Below, in pieces: positions 34,179 to 52,340 of a DNA stretch of 64,000 nt. A program made the translations under genes and the position numbers. Under the pieces are notes generated by a model that did not search any database, was not told where the DNA came from, and saw only the letters and a program-made list of their open reading frames with translations. The first letter of the stretch is position 1, and the number at the start of each line of letters is the position of its first letter. The DNA comes from Bacteroidales bacterium UBA4814 (GTDB lineage: Bacteria > Bacteroidota > Bacteroidia > Bacteroidales > UBA7960): NCBI GenBank assembly GCA_002402465.1, contig DHFW01000052.1, forward strand, positions 71,971 through 135,970, given 5' to 3'.

Positions 34179-34299
34179 GCAACAGGTTTGTTGATAGCAA
34201 CAAGATTTTTAGCAACAGGCGAAATCATGTTACATAGAGATACGCCCCGATAAAAAGGGATATTCTACGATACATTTTTGAGCCAAAAAGGAAAACACT

Positions 34300-34653
34300 A
34301 TGAGCAGCAGTATAGAAGTTCCAAAGATTTGTCAGGACTGCGGAAAGTCTTTCATCGCAAAGACTACCGTTACCAAATTTTGCAGCCACAAGTGCGCCTC
34401 CCGAAACTACAAGAAGCGTAAGCGAGAAGGAAAGATTGAGGAGGTTGCCCCTATTGTGGTTCAGAGAATTGAATACAATCAGGAACAGTTAAAGCACAAA
34501 GATTTTTTGAGTGTTGATGAAACCTGCAAGCTCTTAGGTGCAAGCCGCATGACAATCTATCGACAGATAAAAGCCGGAAACATCAGAGCGGCAAAGATTG
34601 GCAGTCGCACAATCATCAAGAGAACCGAAATCGATAAACTGTTTCAGATATGA
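34300..34653 (+). CDS. zinc-ribbon + excisionase-family (HTH_17) DNA-binding protein
   Basis: CQDCGKSF...CSHKC zinc ribbon and a C-terminal LSVDETCKLLGASRMTIYRQIKAG HTH. An ATGA overlap joins it to the integrase gene. Confidence 0.6.
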   Translation: MSSSIEVPKICQDCGKSFIAKTTVTKFCSHKCASRNYKKRKREGKIEEVAPIVVQRIEYNQEQLKHKDFLSVDETCKLLGASRMTIYRQIKAGNIRAAKIGSRTIIKRTEIDKLFQI

Positions 34654-35744
34654 AGGTAACACTAAGACAACGCAACCAGGGCGGACAGACCAGCTTATAC
34701 CTCGACTATTACCATAAAGGAAAGCGGAAAACCGAGTACCTAAAATTGTACCTCGACCCCAATGCAAAGACCAAGGAGGAAAAAGAGGTCAACAAAAAGA
34801 CCATGCAATTAGCCGAAACCATCAGGGCGCAAAGACAAATCGAAATCCAAAACGGTGTTTATGGCTTTCGTGATCAGGAGAAGCAAAAAGGGAGCTTCCT
34901 TTCCTACATTGAATTGCTTGCGCAGCAAAGAGACGACAGCCCCGGCAATCATGGCAACTGGACGAGCATGATTAAGCACCTCAAGGCTTTTTGCTCTTAT
35001 GATATTTCATTCTCAGAAGTGGACAGGCAATTTGTTCAGGACTTCAAACTATTCCTTGATAAGAAAGCCATAGCCCACGGAAATCAGAAGCTATCCCAAA
35101 ACTCCAAGTACTCCTATTTCAACAAGCTCAGAGCAGCCCTAAAACAAGCAGTGAAAGACGGCATCATTCCAACCAATCCTTCTGAAGGTGTTGAAGCATT
35201 CAAACAAGGAGAACCGGAAAGAGAGTTTTTGACACTGGAAGAATTGCAATCCGCAGTAAAGGCAGATTGCGAAATCCCTATCCTGAAAACGGCATTCATT
35301 TTTTCATGCCTTACAGGGCTTCGCTGGTCAGATATAAACAAGCTCGTTTGGTCTGAGGTGCAGCACTCAAATGAAATGGGCTACTACATCCGATTCAGGC
35401 AAAAGAAAACCAAAGGAGCAGAAACTCTCCCCATTTCAGAACAAGCCTTTGGCTTGCTTGGTGAGCGAGAAGATAAAGACGAGCGAGTTTTCAAGGGATT
35501 GAAATACTCAGCTTGGCACAACCTCAAATTGCAGCAATGGATGATGAAAGCAGGAATATCCAAAACCATCACGTTCCATTGCGCCCGTCATACCTATGCC
35601 ACCTTGCAGCTTACAATGGGAACGGACATTTACACAGTATCAAAGCTCTTAGGCCATAGAGAATTGAAAACCACCCAAGTCTATGCGAAAATCATAGATG
35701 ATAAGAAGAAGGAAGCAGCCAGTAAAATCAAACTCGACCTATGA
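34650..35744 (+). CDS. int: tyrosine site-specific integrase
   Basis: N-terminal arm-binding-like domain, GLRWSD (Arg), HCARHTYAT (HxxR) and LGHRELKTTQVYAKI (catalytic Tyr). Confidence 0.9.
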   Translation: MKVTLRQRNQGGQTSLYLDYYHKGKRKTEYLKLYLDPNAKTKEEKEVNKKTMQLAETIRAQRQIEIQNGVYGFRDQEKQKGSFLSYIELLAQQRDDSPGNHGNWTSMIKHLKAFCSYDISFSEVDRQFVQDFKLFLDKKAIAHGNQKLSQNSKYSYFNKLRAALKQAVKDGIIPTNPSEGVEAFKQGEPEREFLTLEELQSAVKADCEIPILKTAFIFSCLTGLRWSDINKLVWSEVQHSNEMGYYIRFRQKKTKGAETLPISEQAFGLLGEREDKDERVFKGLKYSAWHNLKLQQWMMKAGISKTITFHCARHTYATLQLTMGTDIYTVSKLLGHRELKTTQVYAKIIDDKKKEAASKIKLDL

Positions 35745-36757
35745 GCAATCAAACCAAGATACTTGATGATATTCTAAACCAGGGGCTGCGCCCTTGGTTA
35801 GAAAAGAACAGCTTGGACGACAAGTTTGCTCCCAAGCTCCGTTCCTTGAAAGAAACCTCCACGGATTATCCGTTCAGGTATGAAATCAACTTTCTAAGGC
35901 CATTCGACAACAAGACCAAATACTATTCAAAGCTGATTCTGAATACAGTCAAAGCAGACGTTGAAAGGCTCTACAACCTCATCAGTGAAGATGATACTGA
36001 AAACCTCATCCGCTATTGGCTGGAAGATACTTTGAACAAGCGTTTAAAGACTCGTTTAAAGGACATTGGAAAGCTGATTAAAGAGAAGGAATTTGATTTG
36101 ACATTCATAGATCCCAATAAAGCTTCCATTGAGTTTGACCAGGCACACAAAGCCAACACCTATATCATTCAATTGCTAAAGCTTGCATACATGCAGCTTT
36201 ACCTCGAAATCCAAGATGCTTTCAGTACTTGGATTGATGATAAGTTGGTGATAGAGGATTTTTACACCCAGCTACTACTTGAACCAATACCGCAAAAAGT
36301 TTTATTGACCGAGATTCAAATCATTGAAGTTGAAGCCAAGGACGAACCAACTAAAAAGTCCCACCCCGAACCAACAGTAAATTCATTTCATTCATTTACC
36401 TACAAGCAATTCAGCACAAGTCCAGACAAGCTTACTGATTTATGCGACAGCCTCAAAAAGAACAATTTCATTAGCAAAGAAACTCAGCTATCCAATTTCA
36501 GAAAGATCTTTTCAGGAGACGAAATTAAAACACCTGTTATCTGGACAGGAAATGTAAGTGAGTTCTATTACTTCATCAAATTACTTTACACTAAACACAA
36601 GCTGGTTGCAGACCTAAAGCAAAATCAATGGAAAGTTGCTTGCAAATGCTTTATTAAAACTGATGGCTCATTCTTCGAATATGAAGGTCTCAGGAAAAAT
36701 CAAGCTCCCAAGTCAACAGGCCATTTATTGGAATCCGCTATTTCATTGCTGAAATAA
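35741..36757 (+). CDS. hypothetical protein co-transcribed with the integrase
   Basis: 338-aa ORF whose start overlaps the integrase stop as ATGA. I recognised no motif. Confidence 0.5.
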   Translation: MSNQTKILDDILNQGLRPWLEKNSLDDKFAPKLRSLKETSTDYPFRYEINFLRPFDNKTKYYSKLILNTVKADVERLYNLISEDDTENLIRYWLEDTLNKRLKTRLKDIGKLIKEKEFDLTFIDPNKASIEFDQAHKANTYIIQLLKLAYMQLYLEIQDAFSTWIDDKLVIEDFYTQLLLEPIPQKVLLTEIQIIEVEAKDEPTKKSHPEPTVNSFHSFTYKQFSTSPDKLTDLCDSLKKNNFISKETQLSNFRKIFSGDEIKTPVIWTGNVSEFYYFIKLLYTKHKLVADLKQNQWKVACKCFIKTDGSFFEYEGLRKNQAPKSTGHLLESAISLLK

Positions 36758-36801
36758 GCCGCTCGACACTTTACTCCTATTATCTTTTTTCTGTTTTTAT
36801 T

Positions 36802-36840
36802 TAGCCCTCTTTTTCAAAAAAAGCGGGCTATTCTTTTTTT
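36802..36840 (+). terminator. possible terminator (6-bp stem, large loop, T-run)
   Basis: Stem tagccc...gggcta followed by ttcttttttt. Confidence 0.35.
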
Positions 36841-36846
36841 CAGCCC

Positions 36847-36870
36847 ACTCGACACTCGACACTCGACACT
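36847..36870. repeat. tandem heptamer ACTCGAC x3.4; a further CTCGACACT copy at 36762-36770
   Basis: Read directly from the sequence: actcgacactcgacactcgacact. It lies 120 nt upstream of the HTH gene at 36989. Confidence 0.8.
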
Positions 36871-36988
36871 CCCCCTGCTATTCGGCACTCATAATGCCCT
36901 ATTAGCCACTCTAATTTAGCACTGTATTCGGGAATCGAATATGGCTTTACCGGTGAAGTCCATTCATTAATTCTTAACACAATTAAAG

Positions 36989-37288
36989 ATGGACGAAATA
37001 ATTGAACGTCTTGATAATCTCCAACGCCTAATTGAGAGCCAGGGGATTTACACAAAGGAAGTTTTAAACTTCAATGAGGCTTGCCAGTATCTGGAGCTTT
37101 CCCAATCTCACTTGTACAAGCTGACAAGTGCAGGGAACATTCCACACTACAAGCCCAATGGAAAGAAGCTCTATTTCAAAAGAAGCGAGTTGGAAGGCTG
37201 GTTGCTTCGCAACCGCAATGCCACTCAGGATGAAATAGACCAGCGAGCAGCAGATTATCTAATAAAAAAAGGGAGGATAAAGCTATGA
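36989..37288 (+). CDS. excisionase-family helix-turn-helix (HTH_17) protein
   Basis: FNEACQYLELSQSHLYKLTSAGNIPHYKPNGKKLYFKRSELEGWL. Confidence 0.7.
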   Translation: MDEIIERLDNLQRLIESQGIYTKEVLNFNEACQYLELSQSHLYKLTSAGNIPHYKPNGKKLYFKRSELEGWLLRNRNATQDEIDQRAADYLIKKGRIKL

Positions 37289-37581
37289 CGGAGATATTCG
37301 ATATGCTCCTGACTCTTTCTCAGGACATTAAAACAGTCAAAGCCTACCTCCTCAACTTCCATAAGTCACGCTTAGAGCAGTTCAGTGATGAGTGGATTGA
37401 TGGTCAGGTAGTGATGCAAACGCTGCATATCAGTAAAAGAACCCTCCAATCCCTTCGGGATAGTGGGGTTCTTCCCTACAGCCGAATCAATGGCAAATTC
37501 TACTACAAGGTTTCTGATATAGAAGCCTTACTGGAATCCAATTACTCACCTTCAAAATCAAAGCACTATGGAGGTAAGTAG
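37285..37581 (+). CDS. excisionase-family helix-turn-helix (HTH_17) protein
   Basis: VMQTLHISKRTLQSLRDSGVLPYSRINGKFYYKVSDIEALL. Its start overlaps the previous gene as ATGA. Confidence 0.7.
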   Translation: MTEIFDMLLTLSQDIKTVKAYLLNFHKSRLEQFSDEWIDGQVVMQTLHISKRTLQSLRDSGVLPYSRINGKFYYKVSDIEALLESNYSPSKSKHYGGK

Positions 37582-38488
37582 AAAAGCCATTCTCGACAAA
37601 ACGCACTATGGCCTGAATATTTATTCCCATGTGCTGCGCCACTACTATCCGGGCGAAACAGTCCTTTCCTTTTCGGGAAGGGACTGCAAACCTGCGAAGA
37701 ACCCATTCAATGCAGACAAGCCTACATTGTTAGTAAAGGTTGTTGACGGTTGTGCTACGCACACCGATTCAGAAGAAGCCATTGCACGAGGCAATGTCTT
37801 TGATTTTGCAGCATTGCATTTCAGCCTCGAAGGGCAAGCCCTTCTCGACAAGCTGAATGAAGAACTGCATTTGCGTATCGGTAAGCAACAAGGCTTTTAC
37901 AGACAGGCAGAATCGCAACCTGCGGTTGCTCTTCCTGAAATAGTCAAACCAGCTCCGCCAGTTTTCAGCTATTTCAACAAACCTGTCACCAACACAATCC
38001 CAAGTCGGCAAGCTTCCTTGGTTGAGGTGTACCACCTTATCAAAGGCAATGAATTTGCTTCGTGTACAAGTACACTTCGCAACATTCCCAACCCGAAGGA
38101 AGCCCGAAAGTATAAGGCTCAAAATTTCGATTATGTGACCTTCTCAGGCACTTTCTCCAAGAGAAATGATGCAAACCTCCAAAGACATTCAGGCTTGCTC
38201 ACAATCGATTTTGACCACATTCAGGACATTCCTTCACTCAGGGCGGCATTACTCAACGACCATTATTTTGAAACGGAGCTACTGTTTGTGTCTCCTTCAG
38301 GTGATGGCCTCAAATGGGTAATCCCAATCGACTTGACACAGGCAAAACACCAGGACTATTTCAAGGCAGTGGCAAACTACGTTTCCCACACCTACCAACT
38401 CGAAATAGATCAATCCGGAAAGGACATATCAAGAGCATGTTTCCTTCCGCATGATTCAGAAATATTCATCAATCCTAAATACTTGTAG
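37568..38488 (+). CDS. VirE_N / BT4734-like primase-related protein
   Basis: LLTIDFDHI...LLFVSPSGDGLKWVIPI...ACFLPHD pattern, typical of Bacteroides mobile-element primase-like proteins. Confidence 0.55.
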   Translation: MEVSRKAILDKTHYGLNIYSHVLRHYYPGETVLSFSGRDCKPAKNPFNADKPTLLVKVVDGCATHTDSEEAIARGNVFDFAALHFSLEGQALLDKLNEELHLRIGKQQGFYRQAESQPAVALPEIVKPAPPVFSYFNKPVTNTIPSRQASLVEVYHLIKGNEFASCTSTLRNIPNPKEARKYKAQNFDYVTFSGTFSKRNDANLQRHSGLLTIDFDHIQDIPSLRAALLNDHYFETELLFVSPSGDGLKWVIPIDLTQAKHQDYFKAVANYVSHTYQLEIDQSGKDISRACFLPHDSEIFINPKYL

Positions 38489-38491
38489 GAC

Positions 38492-40309
38492 ATGGAAAGA
38501 AAAACATTCAATCCGCAGGATTGGCTTAATCAGCCAACCCCGCAACCGAAAGTTACAGAGCAACAAACTTTCAATACAGATTCTCAAATAGATGAAGTAG
38601 AACGCATCATTCAAAGCATTGAAGCCAACCGTACAGATATTACCTCCTCTTACAGCAATTGGGTCAATATCGGCTTTGCCTTTGCTGATGAGTTTGGTGA
38701 GAAAGGCAGAAACCTATTTCATAGAGTAAGCCAGTTCTATCCCGATTATTCCGCTACGGAGTGCGACAAGCAATTTGACAATTGCCTGAAATCAAAAGGT
38801 CATGGCGTTTCACTAAAGACCTTTTTCTACCTCGCCAAAGATGCAGGAATTGACATTGCCCCTCCACGGACAGAAAAACAGGATAAGCACACCTTCAAAA
38901 GTGAAAAGCTGAAGGACAGTCAAACAGATCACCGACAGCCCGAGAAGCAGGAACCGGAAGAAATGCCAACTTTTCCAGATTCCTTGTTTCCTGAACTTCC
39001 TGAATTTCTTCAAAAGGTTGTGGCGGTTGCCACTTCCAATGAGGAACGGGATATTCTTCTCCTTGGCTCTATTGGTGCTATCAGTGCATGTTTACCCAAA
39101 GTATCAGGCATCTATGACGGTAAGCGAGTATTTGCCAATCTATTCCTATTCATAACCGCCCAGGCATCCGCAGGAAAAGGCCGCTTGGTGCATTGCCGCC
39201 AGTTGGTCAATCCGGTTCATAAAGAACTACGGGAACAAGCCAAACTCCACAAGCAGCACTATGAATTGGAAATGGCAGAATACAACGCCAAGAAAGGCAA
39301 GGAAGAAGGCATTGAGAAACCAGCCAAACCACCTGAAAAGATGCTGTTCATTCCAGCCAACAACAGTTCAACGGGTGCTTACCAATTGTTGGGTGATAGT
39401 GATGGCAGAGGGCTGATATTCGAGACCGAAGGTGACACCTTAGCCCATGCCTTCAAGAGCGATTATGGAAATTACAGTGACGGCTTTAGAAAAGCCTTTC
39501 ACCATGAAACCATATCCTACTACCGCAGAACCGACCGTGAGTTTGTGGACATAGAAAGCCCTTGTCTTTCTACGGTCCTGTCAGGTACGCCAAAACAAGT
39601 TTCGGCATTGATACCCAACGCTGAAAACGGCTTATTCAGCCGTTTCATCTTCTATTTCATGAACGTTCGCCCGGTATGGAAAAATGTCTTTGCAAGCCAA
39701 ACGGATAATGGATTAGATGATTACTTTGAAGCCCTGGGCAATGAGTTCTATGAACTCTACAAAGTCATCATGCAGGATGAACCAAGGCAGTTCTACCTTA
39801 CGGCAGACCAGCAAGAGCAGTTCAATCAGTTCTTTGGGCAAATACAGGAAAAGTACCTTAATCTTCAGGGCTTGGACTACATGGCAACCATCAGAAGATT
39901 GGGTTTGATAGCCTTCCGTATCAGCATGATATTCTCCGCTTTGCGGATCATGGAAACGGGCGACACTTCCAAGAAGCTGATTTGTGAGGAAAGGGATTTT
40001 CAAGCTGCGCTTGAAATGGTGAAAGTATTGGTAAAGCACTCAAGCAAGGTATTTGGAGAGCTACCTCAAGAGGAATCCAAACCAAGCAGGATGAACAAGA
40101 AAGAAAAGTTCCTCTATGCACTACCGTACAACTTCAACCGCCAGAAGTATCTTGAAGTAGCCAATACCCTGAACATTCCGGCAAAGACAGCCGAAGGCTA
40201 TATCACCGCTTTTGCCAAATCGGGAATGGTTCACCGTGAATCTCAGGACAATTACATCAATACCTCACTTGAGGATATTCAGGATTCTAAGGATGCTGAG
40301 GACGTATAG
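38492..40309 (+). CDS. PriCT-2 + DUF3987-like P-loop (replicative helicase-like) protein
   Basis: WVNIGFAFADEFGEKGRNLFHRVSQ (PriCT-like) and ITAQASAGKGRL (Walker A-like). Confidence 0.55.
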   Translation: MERKTFNPQDWLNQPTPQPKVTEQQTFNTDSQIDEVERIIQSIEANRTDITSSYSNWVNIGFAFADEFGEKGRNLFHRVSQFYPDYSATECDKQFDNCLKSKGHGVSLKTFFYLAKDAGIDIAPPRTEKQDKHTFKSEKLKDSQTDHRQPEKQEPEEMPTFPDSLFPELPEFLQKVVAVATSNEERDILLLGSIGAISACLPKVSGIYDGKRVFANLFLFITAQASAGKGRLVHCRQLVNPVHKELREQAKLHKQHYELEMAEYNAKKGKEEGIEKPAKPPEKMLFIPANNSSTGAYQLLGDSDGRGLIFETEGDTLAHAFKSDYGNYSDGFRKAFHHETISYYRRTDREFVDIESPCLSTVLSGTPKQVSALIPNAENGLFSRFIFYFMNVRPVWKNVFASQTDNGLDDYFEALGNEFYELYKVIMQDEPRQFYLTADQQEQFNQFFGQIQEKYLNLQGLDYMATIRRLGLIAFRISMIFSALRIMETGDTSKKLICEERDFQAALEMVKVLVKHSSKVFGELPQEESKPSRMNKKEKFLYALPYNFNRQKYLEVANTLNIPAKTAEGYITAFAKSGMVHRESQDNYINTSLEDIQDSKDAEDV

Positions 40310-40428
40310 TCCTTGGCATCCTCCATTTCCTCAAAATCCTGAAATCAGTTTACCACTATAATTTGCTTTTACTATCGTTTTCTTTTCTTATATTAGCCAA
40401 ATATTGACAAGTCATAAATTAACAGGTC

Positions 40429-40722
40429 ATGTTTTTCGGTGAAAGAATTAGAGAGCTAAGAGAAAGCCAGGGATTGTTGCAACGGCAGTTAGCAGCAAAC
40501 CTTGAAATAGACACCCCCATGTTTAGTAAAATTGAACGTGGTGAACGGAAAGCCAAACGGGAACAGGTCCTGAAAATTGCCGAAATCCTCAAAGCAAGTC
40601 AGCAGGAATTATTGGCTTTATGGTTGGCAGACCAAATCAAGGAAATAGTAACAGACGAAGATCAGGCATTACAAGCCTTGAAAATCGCTCAAAAGGATAT
40701 AAACCAAGCAAACACCAAATAA
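40429..40722 (+). CDS. XRE-family HTH regulator (candidate controller protein of the R-M operon)
   Basis: FGERIRELRESQGLLQRQLAANLEIDTPMFSKIERGERKA. It ends 2 nt before the hsdM ATG. Confidence 0.8.
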   Translation: MFFGERIRELRESQGLLQRQLAANLEIDTPMFSKIERGERKAKREQVLKIAEILKASQQELLALWLADQIKEIVTDEDQALQALKIAQKDINQANTK

Positions 40723-40724
40723 GA

Positions 40725-42494: not shown

Positions 42495-43826
42495 ATGATG
42501 GTACACGATATACATACAGCAACTTGGCTATCCACTGTTCCGCAGCATTGGAAGACTTTGCGCATCAAAAATCTCTTTGCCGAGATAGATGAAAGAAGCG
42601 AAACAGGCGAAGAAGAATTGCTCTCAGTTTCTCATTATACCGGAGTAACCAAAAAGAGAGACAGCCTTGAAAACGAGGATGATTTTATCAGCAATGCCAA
42701 AACACTCGTGGGCTACAAAAAAGTAGCAGAGAATGATTTGGTTAGCAATATCATGTTGGCGTGGAATGGCAGCTTGGGCATTTCAAAATACGAGGGCATT
42801 ACAAGCCCTGCCTATTGTGTGTATCGCATCAAAGGAGACAATAACCCACACTATTACGGCTATTTGTTTTCTACAGCCATTATGAAGGCAGAGTTTAGAA
42901 AAAAATCCTTTGGCATTATAGATAGCCGCTTGCGCTTATACTCCGATAAGTTTTTCAGTATTCCGGTTACTGTTCCTCCAAAGGATGAGCAAGACCAAAT
43001 AGTGAATTACATAAAAGCCAAGTCCAAAAAAATAAAGCACTTCATCCAGAAAAAGCAAGCCTTTATTGAGTTGCTCAAAGAGCAACGGCAGGCGGTTATT
43101 AGCAAAGCAGTTACCAAAGGTATTAACCCAGAAGTTACCTTAAAGGAAAGCGGCATTAAATGGTTGGGTGATATTCCTGAGCATTGGGGTATTAGGCGAT
43201 TGAAATTTTGTTTGGAAGAAAAACTTAAATATGGTGCTAATGAAAGTGGTTTTGAATACAACCCGGATTGGTATAGATATATTAGGATCACAGACTTTAG
43301 TAAAGGGGGCATTTTAAGTGAAGAAAATAAATTATTCCTCCCAGTAGAAATTGGTAAAGAATACGAATTGAAGGATGGTGATATACTATTTGCCAGAAGT
43401 GGTGCTACTGTAGGCAAGACTTACCAGTTCAAGAAACAGGATGATTCGGAAAAATACTGCTATGCAGGATATTTGATAAAGGCTACTCCCGATGGCGAGA
43501 TAGTGTCATCTGACTTTTTGATGTTGTATTCAGAATCATTGGCTTTTGAGAATTGGAAAAATTCAATATTCAACAAAGCCACGATTGAAAATATTGGAGC
43601 GGACAAATACTCTGTATTACCAATTACAATACCCCCTAAAGAAGAACAAGCGGATATAATTCAATTTATCAAAGCCGAAACCGCCAAAATAGACCAGACC
43701 ATTGCGAAAGCAGAGAAAGAAATAGAACTCATCAAAGAATATCGGGAAGCCATGATAGCCGAAGCGGTATTGGGGAAACTGGATGTAAAGGTTCACACTA
43801 AAAAAGTATTGGAAAATGCCAAGTAA
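42495..43826 (+). CDS. hsdS: Type I R-M specificity subunit (two target-recognition domains)
   Basis: 443-aa protein with duplicated TRD/coiled-coil layout (PPKDEQDQIVNYI..., PPKEEQADIIQFI...). It directly abuts the hsdM stop. Confidence 0.85.
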   Translation: MMVHDIHTATWLSTVPQHWKTLRIKNLFAEIDERSETGEEELLSVSHYTGVTKKRDSLENEDDFISNAKTLVGYKKVAENDLVSNIMLAWNGSLGISKYEGITSPAYCVYRIKGDNNPHYYGYLFSTAIMKAEFRKKSFGIIDSRLRLYSDKFFSIPVTVPPKDEQDQIVNYIKAKSKKIKHFIQKKQAFIELLKEQRQAVISKAVTKGINPEVTLKESGIKWLGDIPEHWGIRRLKFCLEEKLKYGANESGFEYNPDWYRYIRITDFSKGGILSEENKLFLPVEIGKEYELKDGDILFARSGATVGKTYQFKKQDDSEKYCYAGYLIKATPDGEIVSSDFLMLYSESLAFENWKNSIFNKATIENIGADKYSVLPITIPPKEEQADIIQFIKAETAKIDQTIAKAEKEIELIKEYREAMIAEAVLGKLDVKVHTKKVLENAK

Positions 43827-45942
43827 AAGGATAACCAGACATATAGACCGTCTGATACTTGACCCTAACAATTATAGGTTCAAAGACAAACCAGAGTACA
43901 AGCCTGTAGATCAGGCCAACCTTGCTGATACCCGTGTTCAGCAGAGAACGCTAAACTTTATCCTTGGCAAAAACAATGGTAATGTAAAAGACCTCATTAG
44001 CAGCTTTACTACCAATGGCTTTTTGGATATTGACCAAATACAGGTCACTGAGGTAGGCGAAAACCTCTTGGTGCTAGAAGGCAACAGACGTATTGCCACT
44101 TTAAAGTATCTGTATGACGAATTTAAAAAGGGCAATGATGTAGGTCGCCTTACGGAATCCGACTTTAAAAGTGTCAACCTGGTATTGATAGAAGATGAGG
44201 AGCCAATTCAGCACTTAATCGCTATGGGGCTTCACCACATTAGTGGTAAAAAGAGATGGAGTGCCGTAAACGAATCTCAATTGGTAAGTGACCTCATCAG
44301 TAACTATAACAAAACAGAGCAAGAGGTATGTGATGCCCTTGGTATATCTACAGTAAAACTGCGTAGAGGTTTAAGAACACTTAGCCTTATCCAACAATAC
44401 AAGCAAAGCGACTATGGCGACCAATTTGAATCGCCTATGTACACCATTTTTGAGACTGTTATTTCAACACCGGAAATGCGTAATTGGATTGAGTGGAGCA
44501 ATGAAGATATGACCGCCCATAATGCAGTAAACTTAGAACGACTGTTTGGCTGGGTATCTCAAACCGAGGATATTGAAATTGATGAAGATGGAAATGAACG
44601 GGTCGCAACCAAAGAAGCGATTATCAGCCAATACAGGCAAATAAAGGAAATTGCTAAGTTCATAAACGACCCCAAAGCAATTGAACTGATGGAAGAAAGC
44701 CGTAGCATCGCTGAGGCTTATTCTTACAGTGATGTAATTGGTGAAAACAGGCTAAGAAATGCTTTAGATACCCTTCGCAAAGAAGTACAAGTCGCATTCA
44801 ATTTCAGCGAGCATTTAACTGAACCCGATTATGGCGAAATACAAAGGCTAAAAGACAAGTTAGACCGACTGATTCCTTCAAGTAAGGCAGTGGTGGCCAT
44901 CAATGATAAAAGATTGGCAAGCTACTTTACCACAGTTGATAATCATTTCAGCGAAATATTCGTCCACAGCTACAGAAAGCTCCACAAAATCAGAGTTAAG
45001 AACCTGTCTAAGGTCAACATATTTGTAGGTGGCAATAACTTGGGTAAAACCTCCCTACTGGAATGTTTTTACCTATTGAGCCAACTGAATGACATCAATG
45101 CATTCCTGGATTTAGAAAAATACAGGGGCAAATTCTATTCAGATTTTCATTCTAAATGGATTCACAAAAATTTCATTTCAGATATTGAATTAGAAGGCTC
45201 ATTTAACGGGGCTGAAACCAGTCTGCTCCTTTCAAAGACAGAAACCGAGGAGAATATAGAAAAGTCTGGATACCTATCTACCATAGAATCAGAAGGCAAA
45301 GTAAAGGACCTTACATTAGAGAGTTCTATTCATCTTTATACCAATAAAGCCCCGGAGCTTCACTTTACAAAGTCTCAGGTATTGTGTCCTGCCACTTTTA
45401 CAAGTCCATTCAGATACAACACCGAGTTGCTCAAAAAAGCTCACGCCAATGCAGTAACAGAGAAATATTTTGACCGGGTGATAGAGTTCATACAGACTCA
45501 TTTAGACCCAAGCATTGAAAAAATTGAGATGATCAGTGATGAAGGCGAAAGTAGGTTTATGGTTTCTTCTTCTCGCATAAATGAGGTGGTAGATATTACC
45601 AAGTATGGTGAGGGCTTACAACGGGTGTTCGAGATAGCCCTATTGATGGTTTACAGCAAAGATGGTGTGATATGTATTGATGAGGTTGATAGTGCAATCC
45701 ACAAGTCCTTATTGATTGGGTTTACTAAGTTCATACAACAAACAGCAGAGCAATTTAATGTTCAGGTGTTCCTTTCTACCCACAGCAAAGAGTGTATTGA
45801 TGCCTTCGTAAAGAATGACTACCACAATGATTTCATAAGAGCCTACGCCCTATCGGAATTAGATGGCGAAATAGCTTGCAAGTACATTGAGGGAGGCCGT
45901 TTAGAAAAGTTAATTGATTCAATAAATTTTGATATAAGATAA
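43816..45942 (+). CDS. ParB/Srx-like N-terminal domain + HTH + ABC-type (AAA_15/21, OLD/AriA-like) ATPase fusion
   Basis: LVLEGNRRIATLKYL (aa 88-92, nt 44077-44091), GISTVKLRRGLR HTH-like segment, Walker A GGNNLGKTS (nt 45028-45051), GEGLQRVF signature-like motif, Walker B ICIDEVDSAIH and an LSTHS H-loop. Confidence 0.65.
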   Translation: MPSKRITRHIDRLILDPNNYRFKDKPEYKPVDQANLADTRVQQRTLNFILGKNNGNVKDLISSFTTNGFLDIDQIQVTEVGENLLVLEGNRRIATLKYLYDEFKKGNDVGRLTESDFKSVNLVLIEDEEPIQHLIAMGLHHISGKKRWSAVNESQLVSDLISNYNKTEQEVCDALGISTVKLRRGLRTLSLIQQYKQSDYGDQFESPMYTIFETVISTPEMRNWIEWSNEDMTAHNAVNLERLFGWVSQTEDIEIDEDGNERVATKEAIISQYRQIKEIAKFINDPKAIELMEESRSIAEAYSYSDVIGENRLRNALDTLRKEVQVAFNFSEHLTEPDYGEIQRLKDKLDRLIPSSKAVVAINDKRLASYFTTVDNHFSEIFVHSYRKLHKIRVKNLSKVNIFVGGNNLGKTSLLECFYLLSQLNDINAFLDLEKYRGKFYSDFHSKWIHKNFISDIELEGSFNGAETSLLLSKTETEENIEKSGYLSTIESEGKVKDLTLESSIHLYTNKAPELHFTKSQVLCPATFTSPFRYNTELLKKAHANAVTEKYFDRVIEFIQTHLDPSIEKIEMISDEGESRFMVSSSRINEVVDITKYGEGLQRVFEIALLMVYSKDGVICIDEVDSAIHKSLLIGFTKFIQQTAEQFNVQVFLSTHSKECIDAFVKNDYHNDFIRAYALSELDGEIACKYIEGGRLEKLIDSINFDIR

Positions 45943-46814
45943 TGGCTCAGAATTTATTGTACATACTCACAGAGGGGTCTCATGATGCTGCGTTTGTTTA
46001 CCGGATACTTAAAACAAACGGCTTTACCACAAACAATGAGTTAATCAAGAATTATCCTCAACCGTTGAATGACTTTCTCTCAAGAGACATACTGAATGTA
46101 AGCATTCCAGAGGTAAAAATTCAGGAGGCTCGTTCAAGGTTTCTACCAGCCTATGTGATGAACAGAGGCAACAATCTTGTTCTTATCTATTCGATTGGTG
46201 GTGAAAGTAAAGCTGACATTAGAATTTCATTGATAAAGGCACTAAACGCCCTGAATGAACCCGACCCGGATGCTATACAAGCTATTCCAGACACATCCAT
46301 ATCAGTGCTTTACTTTTTTGATGCCGATAACTTAGGTACTGAAGCAAGAATGAACCAGGTGATCGAAGAATGCAAATTGGCATTTCCAAAAGTCGCCTTT
46401 GAGGAAAAGTATGACCCTGCTGAATTTCATCTGTTTGAGGATATACAGGTTGGTGCATACATATTTAGAAAGCCTGATGCAGATGAAGGAATGTTAGAAG
46501 ACGTACTGTTGCCTTTAATGAGAGATGGCAATGATGATATTTTTCAAGCTGCGGAAGGCTTTTTGGCTGTTAATCATACCTGCACACTATTCAGTGCTTC
46601 CTTAAAATTGGACGCCTCAGGTCAAATTTTAAAAGTGAATGGCGAAAAGTACAGTCATAAAAAATCCTTGGTAGGCACTGTAGGCCAACTAAGAAAAAGC
46701 GGAAAATCCAATACTGTTTGCATCAGTGATGCTGAATACATTACAGATGCCAAAATCAATGCAAACGGTACTTGTCTGGATATTATGAGTAGAATAAACA
46801 AAGTATTGATTTAA
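45942..46814 (+). CDS. TOPRIM-like protein (DUF4435/DUF3226/RloB-like), partner of the preceding ATPase
   Basis: N-terminal YILTEGSHDAAF (E-G-x-x-D) and a downstream YFFDADN (DxD). TAATG overlap with the ATPase gene. Confidence 0.5.
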   Translation: MAQNLLYILTEGSHDAAFVYRILKTNGFTTNNELIKNYPQPLNDFLSRDILNVSIPEVKIQEARSRFLPAYVMNRGNNLVLIYSIGGESKADIRISLIKALNALNEPDPDAIQAIPDTSISVLYFFDADNLGTEARMNQVIEECKLAFPKVAFEEKYDPAEFHLFEDIQVGAYIFRKPDADEGMLEDVLLPLMRDGNDDIFQAAEGFLAVNHTCTLFSASLKLDASGQILKVNGEKYSHKKSLVGTVGQLRKSGKSNTVCISDAEYITDAKINANGTCLDIMSRINKVLI

Positions 46815-46818
46815 GGAA

Positions 46819-49773
46819 ATGCATACAACAGATACATCAGAAAAGGGCTTAGAAACGATCATAGAAAAGCATTTAATCAATCACAATGGCTTTATTGCAA
46901 GCTATAGTGCCGACTATGACCGTGACCTCTGCATCAATGAAAAGCTGTTGTTCGAGTTTTTGGCAGCAACGCAACCCAATGCCCATGACACTATTATCAA
47001 AAGAGGTAAAGACAAATTCCTGAAACGCCTTTCAGACCAAATTCGTCAGAAAGGTATCATTGAAATATTGCGCAATGGGGTCAAGGATTTGGATTTAAGA
47101 GTACAGCTCTACTTTAAAAAGCCAACCTCTCTACTTAACGATAAAGCTCAGAAGCAATACAGCAGCAATATTTTTTCTGTTACCCGACAGTTATACTACA
47201 GTCTGGAAAACAGCAACTCTTTAGACATGGTGTTATTTATCAATGGTTTACCATTGAGCACCTTTGAATTAAAGAACCAATGGACCGGTCAGAATGTAAA
47301 ACACGCCATACGCCAATACCAAACTGACAGAGATCCGAAAGAACCCTTATTTGCCTTTGGCAGATGTATGGTTCACTTCGCTGTAGATGCCGATTTGGTT
47401 TACATGACCACTCACCTCAACAGTACAAAGACATTTTTCTTACCCTTTAATAAGGGAAATAATGATGGTGCAGGCAATCCGGTAAACCCCGAAGGTTTAA
47501 AAACTGATTACCTCTGGAAAGATATTTTGACCAAAGACAGCTTGAGCAACATATTGGAAAACTTCGCTCAAATTGTTGAGGAAAAGGACGAAGACACTGG
47601 AAAGGTTAAACGTAAACTGATTTTTCCTCGATACCACCAACTCAGAGCGGTAAAAAAACTGCTGCATCATTCCAAAGAAAACGGTGTTGGCCAGAAATAC
47701 CTCATTCAACATTCGGCTGGTTCAGGCAAATCAAATTCAATTACCTGGTTAGCCCACCAGTTGGTGAGTTTACACGATAGTGAAAATACAGAGACCGTTT
47801 TTGATAGTGTTATTGTAGTAACGGACAGGCGTGTCCTGGACAAGCAAATTAGAGATAACATCAAGCAATTTGCTCAGGTCAGTAGTGTTGTTGAAGCGAT
47901 TGATAAAGGAAGCCGACAATTAAAACAGGCCCTTGAAGATGGAAAGAAAATCATTGTTACCACAGTTCAGAAGTTCCCATTCATCATAGATGAAATCGGA
48001 GCTTTACAGGCAAAGAAATTTGCCATCATTATTGATGAAGCACACAGCAGCCAAAGTGGTGAAACGGCCAGTAAAATGAATTGGGTGCTGTCCGATAAAG
48101 AAGTTACATACGGTGAAGAACCCGAACCACCAACCTCTGAGGATATTGTCAATAACTTGATAGAGAACCGTAAAATGCTGAAAAACGGAAGCTATTTTGC
48201 ATTTACGGCCACCCCAAAAAACAAGACATTGGAAACCTTTGGAGAAAAAACAGCCGAAGGTAAATTCATAGCTTTTGATAATTACACCATGAAGCAGGCC
48301 ATTGAGGAGGAATTTATCCTTGATGTGCTAAAGAATTACACCACCTATCAATCCTACTATAAATTAGATAAAGCTGTTGAAGACAACCCTGAGTTTGAAA
48401 CACGGCAAGCCAACAAAAAGCTACGTGCTTATGTAGAAAGCCACCCTTTCTCCATCATGGAAAAATCAAAAATCATGTTAGACCACTTCCATGCGGACAT
48501 TAGAAAGCTCATCAATGGTCAGGCAAAAGCAATGGTTGTTTGCAAAAGCATTAAAAACGCCATTCTTTACTATCAGGCTTTCAACGAGTATCTGAAAGAA
48601 ATAAACTCGCCATACAAAGCCATTGTAGCTTTTTCAGGCACAAAAGAAATAGACGGAGAAGATTGGGATGAAGCCAGATTAAACGGTTTCCCGAGCAATG
48701 ACATTCCAACTGAGTTCAAGAAAAAAGAGTACCGCTTCCTGATAGTTGCCAATAAGTTTCAAACAGGTTTCGATCAGCCACTATTACATACCATGTATGT
48801 AGATAAAAAATTGGCGGATGTTCAGGCAGTACAAACTTTATCAAGACTCAATAGAGCTTACAAACCTTACAAAGAAGACACCTTTGTGATGGATTTCTTT
48901 AATACCACAGAGGATATTAAAAAAGCATTTGAGCCTTTCTATACCACCACCATTTTAAGTGAAGAAACAGACGCTAATAAACTCAATGATTTACAAGATG
49001 CCTTAGACAATGCTCAGGTCTATTCTCAGGATGATGTTGTCAACTTCACCGACTTGTATTTCAAGGAAGCAGACAGGCAGGAATTAGACCCAATCATTGA
49101 TAAGTGTGTTGCAGAGTTTAAAACTGAACTGAATGAAGATGCACAGATTGATTTCTATGTAAAGGCGAAATCCTTCTTTAGAACGTATGCATTCCTTTCT
49201 AAGCTGCTATCCTTCAATAATTCTTATTGGGAAAGGTTGTATTGGTTTCTGAAATTCCTGATTCCTAAAATCAAGCCGGAGGAAATTGAGGATTTAGCCA
49301 AGGGCATTCTGGAAGCAATAGACCTTGATAGTTACAGACTAACCCGAACAACCCAAGAGAACATCAAACTAAGTGGTGATGAAGAATTAGACCCTACTCC
49401 GCCAGTAATGAAGGGTAAAAAGGGAGAACTTGGTTTTAATGAGTTGGACGCTATCCTCAAAGAATTTAATACAAAGTTTGGCATTGATAACTGGACGGAT
49501 GATGATAAGGTAAAGAAATTCCTGTTCGAGCAATTACCAGCCGATTTTGCCCGTGATGAGGCCACAGTCAATGCTGTTAAAAACAGTGACAAACAGAATG
49601 CAAAAATCACCTCTGATAAAAAGGTTGAGGATTTGATGCAGGATGTGATTTTCCAATACACCGACTTGTATAAAAAATTCACGGATGATCCAGACTTCAA
49701 ACGCCAGTATTTAGACTTTGTATTTGATAAGATTTGGAATCAGCAAACTAATCTTCAAAACAGACCTAAATAA
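46819..49773 (+). CDS. hsdR: Type I restriction endonuclease subunit R
   Basis: N-terminal PD-(D/E)xK (LDMVLFINGLPLSTFELKN), helicase motif I HSAGSGKSNS, motif II IIIDEAHSSQ and SRLNR. Confidence 0.9.
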   Translation: MHTTDTSEKGLETIIEKHLINHNGFIASYSADYDRDLCINEKLLFEFLAATQPNAHDTIIKRGKDKFLKRLSDQIRQKGIIEILRNGVKDLDLRVQLYFKKPTSLLNDKAQKQYSSNIFSVTRQLYYSLENSNSLDMVLFINGLPLSTFELKNQWTGQNVKHAIRQYQTDRDPKEPLFAFGRCMVHFAVDADLVYMTTHLNSTKTFFLPFNKGNNDGAGNPVNPEGLKTDYLWKDILTKDSLSNILENFAQIVEEKDEDTGKVKRKLIFPRYHQLRAVKKLLHHSKENGVGQKYLIQHSAGSGKSNSITWLAHQLVSLHDSENTETVFDSVIVVTDRRVLDKQIRDNIKQFAQVSSVVEAIDKGSRQLKQALEDGKKIIVTTVQKFPFIIDEIGALQAKKFAIIIDEAHSSQSGETASKMNWVLSDKEVTYGEEPEPPTSEDIVNNLIENRKMLKNGSYFAFTATPKNKTLETFGEKTAEGKFIAFDNYTMKQAIEEEFILDVLKNYTTYQSYYKLDKAVEDNPEFETRQANKKLRAYVESHPFSIMEKSKIMLDHFHADIRKLINGQAKAMVVCKSIKNAILYYQAFNEYLKEINSPYKAIVAFSGTKEIDGEDWDEARLNGFPSNDIPTEFKKKEYRFLIVANKFQTGFDQPLLHTMYVDKKLADVQAVQTLSRLNRAYKPYKEDTFVMDFFNTTEDIKKAFEPFYTTTILSEETDANKLNDLQDALDNAQVYSQDDVVNFTDLYFKEADRQELDPIIDKCVAEFKTELNEDAQIDFYVKAKSFFRTYAFLSKLLSFNNSYWERLYWFLKFLIPKIKPEEIEDLAKGILEAIDLDSYRLTRTTQENIKLSGDEELDPTPPVMKGKKGELGFNELDAILKEFNTKFGIDNWTDDDKVKKFLFEQLPADFARDEATVNAVKNSDKQNAKITSDKKVEDLMQDVIFQYTDLYKKFTDDPDFKRQYLDFVFDKIWNQQTNLQNRPK

Positions 49774-51872
49774 TGCCAAAACACTGTTTCAACATACTAA
49801 CATTCAATCACCCAAGTGAGGAATTTACCTTCTACTTTACAGATAAAGAGCAGGAAGGAGTTACAAGGATATTCCATGCTTTAGTTCCTAAAGAGGTCAT
49901 TGAAAAGTATGGTGAACAGGAGCATTTTTACACTTCATTCGGGCAGCAGTTAGATGGTTTCTTGCCAATCAACAAATCAACCGCACCCACATTTGAAACC
50001 ATTAAAACCAAGGAAGGAATTGAAAAATCCGTTCCGGTTTCCAATTCAGCTTTTTCCTCATCCATTCTCAAGCGATACTACAACGGGCTAATTCACAATC
50101 ACTTCAAGTCCAACGGCTTCTTGGTCAAACCTAATTTTGTAAGCGATACAGAAGTATGGTTGCCAAGTGAGGTACAGGATTCAGAAGGCACATACAAAAT
50201 CTTCGACCGCTATTCCTTGAAGGTTCAATTCAAAACAGTTTCCACCAGCTTAGAGCTTTTGGTGACATTTGAAGGGAGATCCAAGATTTTCCGAACACCA
50301 GTATCAGAGCTTTTTGAAGAAGTGCCAGTAAAGGCTTTCAATTGGGTAGTTTTTGAAAAAGGATTGTACCGCTTTGATGAATTGCCTGACGAAGGAAAAA
50401 GACAATACGACAAGGTTTATCCAGTATGGAACTTTGAAATCAGGGATGCTTTGCAACAGGAAACGGAAGCACCCGACAAGACCAACAAATACAAGAAGTT
50501 CAAAACTGCCATAGATAAATTCTACAAGCAGCATCTAAATACACAGGAGTTTAAGGCAATTATTCCAATTTCATCCAATGGCTTTATTCCGGTGGAAGAA
50601 GCTCGAATAGGTACAGTAGAAAAGAGCAGTAATAAATTGATTTTCGGAAACCAGAAACCGCATCATATTCCTTACTACGGCATCACAGAACATGGCCCAT
50701 TTGAATTAAGCCCTTCTTCTAAGATTCATTTCTTCTTCATTATCCATGAAGATGATAAGCCCGTAGCAACCACCATCCACAAGTATTTCAATGGCAATCT
50801 GCAAGGCTTCAAAGGGCTGTCAAGATTCATTCATACGCCATACCACCCCGATAAGGACTTGGCAATCTATTTCACCAACAGGGAGAATCCTTGGCCTGAG
50901 TTGTATGAACAAATCAATGACAAAGACTTTGACCCGGACGTTCAGCATTTAGCCATTTACATAAGCCCCATTAGCAAGAATGTTTCAGACAAATCCCGAA
51001 GGATGGTCTATTACAAGCTAAAAGAACTCTTGCTCAAAAAAGGTGTTTCCTCTCAGGTGATTGACCCTGAGAAGGTAATTACCAACGACAAGTATCATTT
51101 CAGCTTGCCAAACATTGCTATTGCCATACTCGCAAAGCTCAATGGCACTCCTTGGCGTTTAGACACAAAGCTGAAGAATGAATTGATTGTTGGTGTAGGA
51201 GCATTCAAACATTCGGAAGTAGATGTGCAATATATCGGTAGTGCTTTCAGTTTTTCCAATACAGGAAAATTCAACCGCTTTGAATGTTTTCAGAAAGACC
51301 AAACAAAAGAGTTGGCAGGCTCAATCCTAAGAGCAGTTAAAGACTATGTGAATGTAAATTCAGGAATCCGAAGGCTTGTAATTCACTTCTACAAGGACAT
51401 GAGTAGAGAGGAAGTAGAACCGATTGAAAACGGCCTGAAAGAATTAGAATTGAATATTCCGGTCTTTATCGTCACCATCAACAAAACGGAATCCTCCGAT
51501 ATTGTTGCTTTTGATTTGGACTGGAAAGATTTGATGCCTGTAAGTGGCACATTCATCAAATTAGGCTACAACAGGTTTCTACTGTTTAACAATACCAGGT
51601 ATTCCGCATCAGAGTTCAATTTCAATGATGGATTTTCATTTCCGGTAAAGCTCAAAATTAATTGCTCCAATCCTGAATTGGTGGATGATTACAAAACAGT
51701 CAAAGAGCTTATCGATCAAGTGTATCAATTCAGTCGCATGTACTGGAAATCAGTAAGACAACAAAATTTGCCCGTAACAATCAAGTACCCTGAAATGGTG
51801 GCAGAAATGCTCCCCTACTTTGAAGGCAACGAGATTCCTGATTACGGAAAAGACAATCTTTGGTTTTTATGA
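49773..51872 (+). CDS. prokaryotic Argonaute (MID-PIWI, long-type, predicted catalytically inactive)
   Basis: MID pocket Y413-x3-K417...Q428...K455 (VYYKLKELLLKKGVSSQVI...IAILAKLNGTPW). The PIWI block ELIVGVGAFKH has G476 (gga 51198-51200) where the first catalytic Asp belongs. C-terminal LPVTIKYPEMVAEM. Confidence 0.8.
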   Translation: MPKHCFNILTFNHPSEEFTFYFTDKEQEGVTRIFHALVPKEVIEKYGEQEHFYTSFGQQLDGFLPINKSTAPTFETIKTKEGIEKSVPVSNSAFSSSILKRYYNGLIHNHFKSNGFLVKPNFVSDTEVWLPSEVQDSEGTYKIFDRYSLKVQFKTVSTSLELLVTFEGRSKIFRTPVSELFEEVPVKAFNWVVFEKGLYRFDELPDEGKRQYDKVYPVWNFEIRDALQQETEAPDKTNKYKKFKTAIDKFYKQHLNTQEFKAIIPISSNGFIPVEEARIGTVEKSSNKLIFGNQKPHHIPYYGITEHGPFELSPSSKIHFFFIIHEDDKPVATTIHKYFNGNLQGFKGLSRFIHTPYHPDKDLAIYFTNRENPWPELYEQINDKDFDPDVQHLAIYISPISKNVSDKSRRMVYYKLKELLLKKGVSSQVIDPEKVITNDKYHFSLPNIAIAILAKLNGTPWRLDTKLKNELIVGVGAFKHSEVDVQYIGSAFSFSNTGKFNRFECFQKDQTKELAGSILRAVKDYVNVNSGIRRLVIHFYKDMSREEVEPIENGLKELELNIPVFIVTINKTESSDIVAFDLDWKDLMPVSGTFIKLGYNRFLLFNNTRYSASEFNFNDGFSFPVKLKINCSNPELVDDYKTVKELIDQVYQFSRMYWKSVRQQNLPVTIKYPEMVAEMLPYFEGNEIPDYGKDNLWFL

Positions 51873-52279
51873 ACACCTCACTAGAAGAAAAACTTAGAAA
51901 GAAATCCATTAAACCAACGGCCATGCGCCTTTTGGTTTTACAATGCTTAATGGAGCAAAACCGTGCATTAAGTTTGAATGAACTAGAAGTGCTTTTCGAA
52001 AATGCTGATAAGTCAACCATATTCAGGACGCTCAAAACATTTCAAGAAAACTACTTGGTACACAGAATCAATGACGGTAGTGGAGCAATCAAATATGCCC
52101 TTTGTGATGATGACTGTATTTGCAGTTTGGAAGATAACCACATTCATTTCTTGTGTACTAAATGCGAAAAAACCTATTGCCTAAAGGATACCCCTATCAC
52201 AACTCCGAATTTACCAAATGGATTTAGAGCAAACTTTGCCAATTACCTGATTGAAGGCATCTGCTCTGCTTGTTCTTAG
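51869..52279 (+). CDS. Fur-family metalloregulator
   Basis: RLLVLQCL...STIFRTLKTFQENYLVHRI winged helix and CxxC pairs (CTKCEK, CSAC). ATG 51869 overlaps the pAgo TGA as ATGA. Confidence 0.75.
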   Translation: MNTSLEEKLRKKSIKPTAMRLLVLQCLMEQNRALSLNELEVLFENADKSTIFRTLKTFQENYLVHRINDGSGAIKYALCDDDCICSLEDNHIHFLCTKCEKTYCLKDTPITTPNLPNGFRANFANYLIEGICSACS

Positions 52280-52340
52280 AACTTTGCAATGGCATTGCAC
52301 TCCTTAATTACTTGCTTTGTGTTCGAATTAAAACTTGAAC

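Follow-up and report, generated by a model that had tools for sequence, protein, structure and literature searches.

ATP-binding cassette (ABC) ATPases that act together with nucleases, as in OLD, Gabija, PARIS, AbiL, Menshen and Septu, form a major immunity class, and the way in which infection is sensed is its central open question. Here we analyse a two-gene candidate for this class that lies inside a type I restriction-modification (R-M) operon of Bacteroidales bacterium UBA4814 (contig DHFW01000052.1). The window refers to the whole 64,000-nt stretch of DNA that was analysed, A to its 708-aa open reading frame (ORF) between hsdS and hsdR, and B to the 290-aa ORF that follows A. Among the described systems, Menshen (NsnA-NsnB-NsnC) combines a ParB-superfamily sensor carrying a DNA-binding domain with an OLD-type ABC ATPase and a polymorphic nuclease effector, which can be a TOPRIM protein (DUF4276, RloB), and so provides the precedent for a path from ParB sensor through ABC ATPase to nuclease. 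Of the Menshen operons, 27.9% show a link with type I/III R-M and BREX. PARIS (AriA/AriB), lactococcal AbiL (AbiLi/AbiLii) and Campylobacter RloA/RloB are two-gene arrangements of an ABC ATPase with a TOPRIM-type effector, as A-B probably is. PARIS and AbiL provide the precedent for an ABC ATPase that restrains a TOPRIM effector, and the Rlo genes are likewise reported between hsd genes. OLD and GajA also bring together an ABC ATPase and TOPRIM motifs (E, DxD), and in RloB and DUF4276, the partners of related ATPases, the TOPRIM fold was recognised only by structure analysis.

A further group of candidates was named from genomic context. The PDC families of PADLOC are "guilt by embedding" candidates, drawn from loci of BREX, DISARM and type I R-M systems (Payne et al. 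bioRxiv 10.1101/2024.01.29.577857). One of them, PDC-M38, is represented by the cassettes FAM_01405>>FAM_00135 and FAM_00005>>FAM_00745 (supplement, bioRxiv 10.1101/2024.01.29.577857), and ParB is not mentioned in that work (Payne et al. bioRxiv 10.1101/2024.01.29.577857). Its catalogue entry has no domain description and pools long, ParB-fused forms of A with short, ATPase-only forms: one PDC-M38A hidden Markov model (HMM) is long (715 aa) and several are short (362-383 aa). Our literature search returned no mention of "PDC-M38" or of "DUF3226".

By profile match, the pair in the window is PDC-M38, an already catalogued defence candidate. A matched PDLC04607 with an E value of 2.3e-302 over profile positions 8-714 of 715, and B matched PDLC04615 at 4e-125, each over its full length; the order of A then B and the embedding in a type I R-M operon are also those of PDC-M38. 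An initial annotation, made from the letters of the window, had linked the pair to PARIS, OLD and Rlo. As a statement of membership this gave way to PDC-M38, whereas the two ORFs and the motifs quoted for them were found where they had been placed, between hsdS and hsdR (ORF list; Pfam neighbours HsdM, HsdS and HsdR). The same annotation regarded a ParB-ATPase fusion as lying outside the architectures of OLD/Gabija and PARIS; the fusion does differ from PARIS, OLD and Rlo, but PDC-M38 is catalogued and Menshen has the same three-part logic. The genes at the centre of the analysis are:

42495-43826, + strand: hsdS (Pfam Methylase_S)
43816..45942, + strand: gene A, 708 aa (ORF; PDLC04607 match; PADLOC PDC-M38A long form)
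45942..46814, + strand: gene B, 290 aa, DUF3226 (PDLC04615 match; Pfam DUF3226; PADLOC PDC-M38B)
46819..49773, + strand: hsdR (HSDR_N, ResIII, SWI2_SNF2, T1R_D3-like)

In the ORF list they belong to a compact row of genes on the same strand that reads XRE helix-turn-helix (HTH) regulator, hsdM, hsdS, A, B, hsdR and pAgo. The end of hsdS reaches 11 nt into A, A and B meet in a TAATG overlap, and a gap of 4 nt separates B from hsdR; A and B are translationally coupled to the flanking hsdS and hsdR.

Protein A divides into four parts, for which confidence in the structure model is given as pLDDT (the predicted local distance difference test):

43816..44265, + strand: ParB/sulfiredoxin (Srx)-like N-terminal domain, about aa 1-150 (profile evidence)
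44263..44406, + strand: HTH segment, about aa 150-197 (predicted helices H150-162, H168-175 and H179-196; aligns with the canonical ParB HTH)
44407..44931, + strand: unassigned, mostly helical middle domain, about aa 198-372 (pLDDT 70-91; common to a standalone family of about 360 aa)
44941..45942, + strand: compact ABC ATPase, aa 376-708 (matches to Pfam AAA_15 and AAA_21 that exceed the cut-offs; Foldseek)

The C-terminal part was confirmed as an ABC ATPase whose nearest relatives are AbiLi and AriA. More than 120 full-length homologs of A were found at an identity of at least 59%, and in 35 of them the residues of all four ATPase motifs were compared. Invariant positions were G405, N407, N408, G410, K411 and T412 in Walker A (aa 405-413); G598, E599, G600, Q602 and R603 in the signature-like motif (aa 598-605); D622, E623 and D625 in Walker B (aa 618-623) including the D-loop; and T655 and H656 in the H-loop (aa 653-657). 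The ATPase and its motifs, as first annotated, are therefore upheld by Pfam, by Foldseek and by invariance across homologs. The AlphaFold2 (AF2) model of this part was good and matched the heads of retron/Septu PtuA, Rad50, SMC, RecN and GajA in Foldseek at E values of 1e-9 to 1e-13; it showed a compact domain of 333 aa without a coiled-coil insert. In PADLOC, the matches after its own family were AbiLi (3.7e-30), AriA (2.7e-20), HEC-02A, NsnB (5e-13), HEC-01A and GajA. A weak match to RecF was seen as well.

The N-terminal part of A is supported as a ParB-type N-domain followed by an HTH, a call made from profile comparisons. A search with residues 1-375 against 1.8 billion representatives yielded 956 relatives, including the standalone family of about 360 aa, whose members are 25-33% identical and align to A up to residue 350-365 or so. 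Database names among these relatives were "ParB N-terminal domain-containing", "ParB/Sulfiredoxin" and "ParB-like nuclease domain". Pfam ParB_N matched 17 of 44 head relatives (best 4.9e-5), compared to one of 44 for GmrSD_N. The profile of the head family matched Noc (7ol9, 5.9e-4), PadC (6ryk) and ParB (6t1f) in the PDB across the segment EGNRRxAA, and hhalign against a canonical ParB, met by chance (L096), gave a probability of 73% and a P value of 3.1e-5 over 115 columns, with GERRWRA placed over EGNRRvAA and both HTHs in register. The HTH segment itself gave weak HTH matches in relatives and in the PDB; its three predicted helices and its alignment with the canonical ParB HTH bear out the HTH of the initial annotation, and ParB_N, the PDB matches and hhalign bear out its ParB-like domain. 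As in ParB, Noc and PadC, a box-I-like motif (PNNYR, within LDPNNYR at aa 15-21) and a box-II-like motif with the GNRR arginine pair (EGNRR, aa 88-92) precede the HTH. Box II, in the form EGNRR(I/V)A(T/A)L, is invariant in the A family, and D16, N19, R21, Q42, E88-G89-N90-R91-R92 and W148 are invariant in both the fused and the standalone families. The nearest defence-annotated ParB-like protein was PD-Lambda-5_A, whose PADLOC profile matched the head at 7e-9; PD-lambda-5, a compact system of R-M plus Abi that includes a methyltransferase, has no ATPase fusion, in contrast to A. A search of A and B against PDB sequences by phmmer gave nothing useful.

Protein B is probably a divergent TOPRIM-like metal-dependent nuclease, as judged from its motifs and profile, rather than an established one. 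Its two motifs are:

45969..45986, + strand: motif 1, TEGSHD, aa 10-15, which follows predicted strand 1 (with E11 as the candidate TOPRIM glutamate)
46320..46328, + strand: motif 2, DAD, aa 127-129, which follows predicted strand 3 (as a candidate for the TOPRIM DxD)

Pfam DUF3226 scored 30.0 bits on B (cut-off 27) and matched all 41 aligned relatives (best 3e-13). Across the 41 homologs, E11, G12, H14, D15, D127 and K241 were invariant, and A128, D129, E186 and D187 were present in at least 90%; S242 and G248/Q249/L250 were conserved as well. E11 comes after the predicted strand E3-10 and DAD after E118-127, and the order β1-α1-β2-α2-β3-α3-β4 is compatible with TOPRIM. We compared the B family by hhalign with an alignment of OLD TOPRIM domains, made from P2 Old and 10 plasmid OLD-family proteins. 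The unedited profile gave a P value of 0.0023 with only motif 1 aligned, and after removal of a lineage-specific insert (aa 27-68) this became 1.6e-4 at a probability of 50%. The edited alignment paired TEG with the VEG of VEGxTE, GGxSK with DGKGS and DAD with DCD of OLD, so that the weak likeness (P 1.6e-4) to the P2 Old-family TOPRIM is at E, GK and DxD; the controls, a reversed B profile and the ATPase part of OLD, gave P values of 0.29 and 0.26. The AF2 model of B (pLDDT 82.5; predicted template modelling score, pTM, 0.82) had a single significant Foldseek neighbour in the PDB, the uncharacterised archaeal structural-genomics protein PH0156 (2p62; E 6.6e-7, TM-score 0.61 on the target). 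The model superposes on PH0156, relative to which B carries an additional insert (aa ~27-68) and is extended at its C-terminus, and the neighbours after it were small GTPase-like three-layer folds with non-significant E values. The initial annotation had called B a TOPRIM-like protein of the DUF4435/DUF3226/RloB kind. DUF3226, the motifs, the strand order and the hhalign result (P 1.6e-4) speak for this, whereas DUF4435, RloB, Toprim HMMs and Foldseek gave no support; DUF4435 matched neither B nor any of its 41 relatives, and RloB and PIN-type Pfam families did not match B.

We then surveyed one genome per species, which gave 146 relatives of A and 80 loci for analysis. B was the next gene after A in 79 of the 80 loci, and a 296-aa ORF took this position in the remaining one, which sustains the reading of the two genes as a pair; pairwise identities of A and of B were correlated, with a Spearman coefficient of 0.80 (73 loci). 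The full-length fusion A was found in Bacteroidota, Campylobacterota, Gammaproteobacteria (Thiolinea, Marithrix, Methyloprofundus), Acetatifactor (Bacillota), Spirochaetota, Ignavibacteria and others. The embedded arrangement hsdM-hsdS-A-B-hsdR recurred in 22 of the 80 loci (~27%), in seven of which pAgo came after hsdR, and also in L099 (hsdM-hsdS-A-B-hsdR, with an A of 707 aa), which was found independently via a distant relative of B. Elsewhere the neighbours included methylases, ResIII, PglZ, SNF2 and HpaII. Thus, with such mixed neighbours outside the hsd operons, A-B is an autonomous module that often, but not always, lies in or beside R-M-type systems.

Comparison of closely related loci revealed that B is exchanged as a cassette beside an identical A. 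Relative to the window, L001, L002, L004 and L006 showed 90-96% nucleotide identity on both sides of B and 52-59% exactly across it, whereas L003 and L005 were 90-100% identical with B included. Between L003 and L004, A was 100% and B 52% identical, and the same swap pattern was seen in a second lineage (L022 and L025 vs L032). The two B alleles keep the motif blocks at aa 1-20, 101-120, 181-200 and 241-260 and differ in the insert and in other segments. No co-variation of the C-terminus of A with the B allele was seen, L003 and L004 having identical A and different B. Such swapping is expected of a component in an arms race and has been reported for Menshen NsnC. In two loci, L020 (10130-11030) and L051 (10140-11100), B was split into two ORFs 3' of an intact A, and these may be frameshifted, inactivated effectors.

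The head and the ATPase also occur apart from each other. In each of the five places examined, one of them in a prophage region, a standalone head of about 360 aa was followed by an overlapping or adjoining gene for an Mrr_cat nuclease (~270-294 aa). Four of these loci are:

L081:6001-7985: standalone head and Mrr_cat gene
L084:6001-7976: standalone head and Mrr_cat gene
L096:3501-5483: standalone head and Mrr_cat gene
L097:3501-5543: standalone head and Mrr_cat gene

In PADLOC, the standalone heads matched only the N-terminal half of PDC-M38A and, more weakly, PD-Lambda-5_A, and their partner matched no named system; head and Mrr_cat gene may therefore be an uncatalogued two-gene defence candidate. 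Furthermore, gp98 of the P2-like phage Wphi has the same ParB-like module at 24% identity (E 2e-11; L101:96-2331). It occupies the defence hotspot in which P2 has old/tin. Next comes the overlapping gp96 (369 aa), which had no Pfam match and shows no likeness to Mrr_cat, and a C5 DNA methylase lies behind it. The head module is portable, which fits a sensor coupled to nucleases. Conversely, L100:592-2599 holds a short form: its A is a 378-aa, ATPase-only protein (AAA_15/AAA_21), and the DUF3226 B behind it shares 36% identity with the B of the window. This short form adjoins a TaqI_C fragment, with no ParB-like gene to be seen there. New here are the portable head, the confirmed ATPase-only short A and the cassette swapping of B.

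We also asked whether A-B belongs to one of the named systems. Menshen membership was rejected: NsnA is a separate protein with a ParB-DUF262 domain (DGxQR) and ParBDB, while the head of A is fused to the ATPase, is ParB_N/Noc-like (EGNRR) and has no NsnA match; NsnB carries DUF3696, for which Pfam gave no match in A, whose NsnB match is only 5e-13; and NsnC has inPIN plus a nuclease, while B is a DUF3226 protein without inPIN or any PIN-type match. PARIS, AbiL and RloAB have no ParB/HTH head, unlike A. PARIS was rejected since the match to AriA is partial and weaker than those to PDC-M38A and AbiLi, and B has no AriB or DUF4435 match; AbiL and RloAB were rejected since B matches neither AbiLii (PADLOC) nor RloB (Pfam). 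OLD and Gabija, in spite of the match of the A model to GajA, were rejected since ATPase and TOPRIM are fused there and encoded by two genes here. Activation by Ocr and tRNA cleavage have been shown for PARIS; for A-B, an anti-restriction (Ocr) trigger, which the initial annotation had proposed to look for, would be pure analogy.

The reading that we favour, with a probability of roughly 60%, is that A-B is an autonomous two-gene module against phages or mobile elements, of the class that pairs an ABC ATPase with a nuclease effector. In the mechanism we propose, the ParB/Srx-HTH-helical module of A would be the sensor, a nucleotide-binding and DNA-binding head like those of ParB, Noc and Menshen NsnA; the fused ABC ATPase, dimerising on ATP, would be the transducer; and B would be the effector, a metal-dependent TOPRIM-like nuclease that acts via E11, D127/D129 and E186/D187. 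A would keep B inactive and would release or activate it upon sensing foreign DNA or a phage product, whereupon nucleic acid (DNA or tRNA) would be degraded and immunity, either abortive or direct, would result. The position between hsdS and hsdR would lead to co-transcription and co-transfer and possibly provide a second line of defence when restriction fails. The analysis establishes the gene structure, the domain homologies, the invariant residues of catalytic type, the obligate pairing of A with B, the recurrent embedding in R-M operons, the horizontal mobility and the cassette swapping of B; we infer the sensing of DNA or nucleotides by the head, the nuclease activity of B, its control by A, the defence phenotype and the nature of the trigger. 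A wider version of it, which we offer tentatively and consider rather doubtful, would make the head a portable DNA sensor, gated by nucleotides, and the defining part of a larger, unnamed set of defence systems, in which it is combined with Mrr_cat, with the Wphi partner or with an ATPase and DUF3226. Its hsd-embedded form would monitor the DNA on which the type I enzyme acts (for instance DNA that is unmodified or translocated, or a failure of restriction), and the B cassettes would reflect an arms race with phage inhibitors of the effector.

Several observations weigh against a defence module with a ParB-type sensor and a nuclease effector. For the head, a Pfam scan of the N-terminal 371 aa of A as a single sequence gave no match and thus missed ParB_N. 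In the AF2 model of A, made from a 35-sequence alignment at an identity of at least 59%, residues 1-148 had a pLDDT below 50, so their fold is not modelled confidently and the ParB call rests on profile evidence alone. At the position of the catalytic box III of ParB (ENLQR), A reads GLHHISGKKRW, so that CTP hydrolysis by the head cannot be assumed; there is also no ParA partner or partition context. Moreover, given the ATPase-only short form, the core system does not depend on the ParB head. For B, PADLOC gave no match to AriB, AbiLii or GajA, Pfam Toprim-type HMMs matched one of the 41 relatives (E 0.019), and the B-family profile had no match among PDB sequences. Foldseek found no significant similarity to a solved TOPRIM structure in the PDB, TOP3B coming at rank 42 with an E value of 0.25, and nothing below an E value of 0.001 in BFVD. 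Neither HMMs nor Foldseek gave a significant match of B to any characterised nuclease, and DUF3226 is a family without known function. As to context, ~58 of the 80 loci (~70%) had no detectable hsd genes even with iterative HMM searches, and many neighbours outside hsd operons are housekeeping genes. Finally, PDC-M38 is among "145 untested" candidates (Payne et al. bioRxiv 10.1101/2024.01.29.577857), only four of eight HEC/PDC candidates were protective in a later test, and HEC-01, an ATPase plus TOPRIM candidate, gave no defence in its authors' assays.

Other readings of the pair fit its distribution and domain evidence less well. That A and B are accessory subunits of the type I enzyme, for instance loading, regulating or alleviating HsdR via the ParB-like head, would account for their translational coupling inside hsdM-hsdS-A-B-hsdR and for the recurrence of this position in 22 of 80 loci and in L099. 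It is nevertheless very unlikely, given the ~58 of 80 loci without detectable hsd genes and their diverse neighbours, and given that B alleles swap independently of an hsdR that is 97-99% identical. Type I R-M systems, moreover, function without A-B-like genes. An obligatory role as R-M subunits was rejected since most loci have no hsd genes. A role in partition, maintenance or repair, with a ParB-like centromere binder, an SMC/Rad50/RecF-like ATPase and an SbcD-like nuclease partner, we regard as highly improbable, even though the head resembles ParB, Noc and KorB-type proteins and the ATPase matches the Rad50, SMC and RecN heads in structure and RecF weakly. The distribution of the pair is patchy and horizontally transferred, its ATPase of 333 aa lacks a coiled-coil insert, no ParA partner accompanies it, the closest relatives of the ATPase by HMM are without exception defence ATPases, the pair is embedded in R-M operons, and swapping of B as a cassette is atypical of housekeeping repair or partition genes.

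The two remaining alternatives concern what B does. A toxin-antitoxin (TA)-like addiction module, in which B is the toxin and A the antitoxin and which stabilises the island or the R-M operon without dedicated phage sensing, is unlikely. It has in its favour that PARIS acts as a type II TA pair, that the module is carried on a mobile island spread between families at 88-93% nucleotide identity, and that L020 and L051 carry B as two separate ORFs, which might befall a toxic gene. However, a conserved 375-aa ParB/HTH/helical head with invariant residues of the nucleotide-pocket type is difficult to reconcile with a plain antitoxin, many loci lie in chromosomes without obvious mobile-element genes, and addiction and defence are not mutually exclusive roles. 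Quite unlikely, too, is a defence system in which DUF3226 is another kind of effector or an adaptor, with an E...DxD pattern that is convergent or serves only to bind metal or nucleotide. The missing HMM and Foldseek links to TOPRIM proteins, the small GTPase-like (non-significant) runners-up after PH0156 and an hhalign probability of only 50%, reached only with the insert edited out, would all suit it. Yet the placing of EGxxD and DxDxxG, behind predicted strands 1 and 3, is exactly that of TOPRIM, the G-G-x-S-K turn after strand 2 aligns with DGKGS of OLD while both controls stayed at P values of 0.26-0.29, and RloB and DUF4276 were likewise recognised as TOPRIM by structure analysis alone. 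We therefore retain the autonomous defence module with a probable TOPRIM-like nuclease effector as the preferred reading.

The operon that contains A-B lies in an integrative element, whose other features in the window are:

32657-34057: host mnmE, upstream of the integrase
34650..40309, + strand: integrative-element backbone (tyrosine integrase, DUF6617, two HTH_17 genes, BT4734-like, DUF3987/PriCT_2; Pfam)
34650-35744, + strand: tyrosine integrase (Pfam)
40429..40722, + strand: XRE-type HTH regulator that opens the operon (HTH_31, HTH_19, HTH_3), kept in related islands
listed from 40620, + strand: hsdM (Pfam N6_Mtase, HsdM_N)
49773..51872, + strand: pAgo (Piwi), the last cargo gene (Pfam Piwi; PADLOC pAgo, E 1e-289)

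This integrase-borne element of ~17 kb (34650-51900) is situated between mnmE and a Fur-like gene. In near-identical islands, homology to the window ends at 51870-51899, directly past pAgo; thus, the cargo of the ~17-kb element is a composite operon of type I R-M, A-B and pAgo. Similar islands were found in Cyclobacteriaceae, Pedobacter, Algoriphagus, Penaeicola, Sphingobacterium and a Cytophagales genome, and their presence in several Bacteroidota families at ~80-93% nucleotide identity indicates recent horizontal spread; islands that bear the module are shared between families at 88-93%. The ORF of the Fur-family regulator (51860-52279) has a start codon that overlaps the pAgo stop (ATGA), yet this is precisely where homology to most related islands stops. 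In L001, L003 and L006, pAgo is followed by ORFs of about 140 aa, and this similarity in size suggests a shared insertion site beside a fur-like gene. A search for attachment (att) sites found no exact direct repeat of at least 12 bp between 34001-34700 and 51601-52400, and no tRNA gene was found in the window.

Within the operon, the hsdM ORF as listed (40620) overlaps the upstream HTH gene by ~100 nt. Its homologs align only from residue ~28-36, so that the true start of hsdM is probably a Met near 40725, just 3' of the HTH stop. The start of pAgo sits on the stop codon of hsdR, and the hsdR-pAgo adjacency is also seen in seven related loci, L002 not being one of them; the pAgo region shows 63-84% nucleotide identity and, in islands that are similar in other respects, is less well kept than hsdR. 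In both of its target-recognition regions, hsdS (window 42400-43650) falls to 34-55% nucleotide identity relative to islands that are otherwise 90-98% identical, a pattern of classic specificity-domain swapping among related islands. A scan for sigma-70 promoters and intrinsic terminators gave no excess over shuffled sequence and was uninformative, Bacteroidota promoters being outside its coverage.

Should the module prove inactive, the window would still provide an annotated case of "guilt by embedding", in which an island with type I R-M, PDC-M38 and pAgo spreads between families. Among the leads, the portable ParB-type sensor head and the swapping of effector cassettes hold the most interest. 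A fused head, a natural headless form and different B proteins beside an identical A together make a comparative system for how infection is sensed and how the signal is passed to the effector. If the proposed reading is true, it would provide the first function for DUF3226 and PH0156, in a module, PDC-M38, that is common in Bacteroidota.

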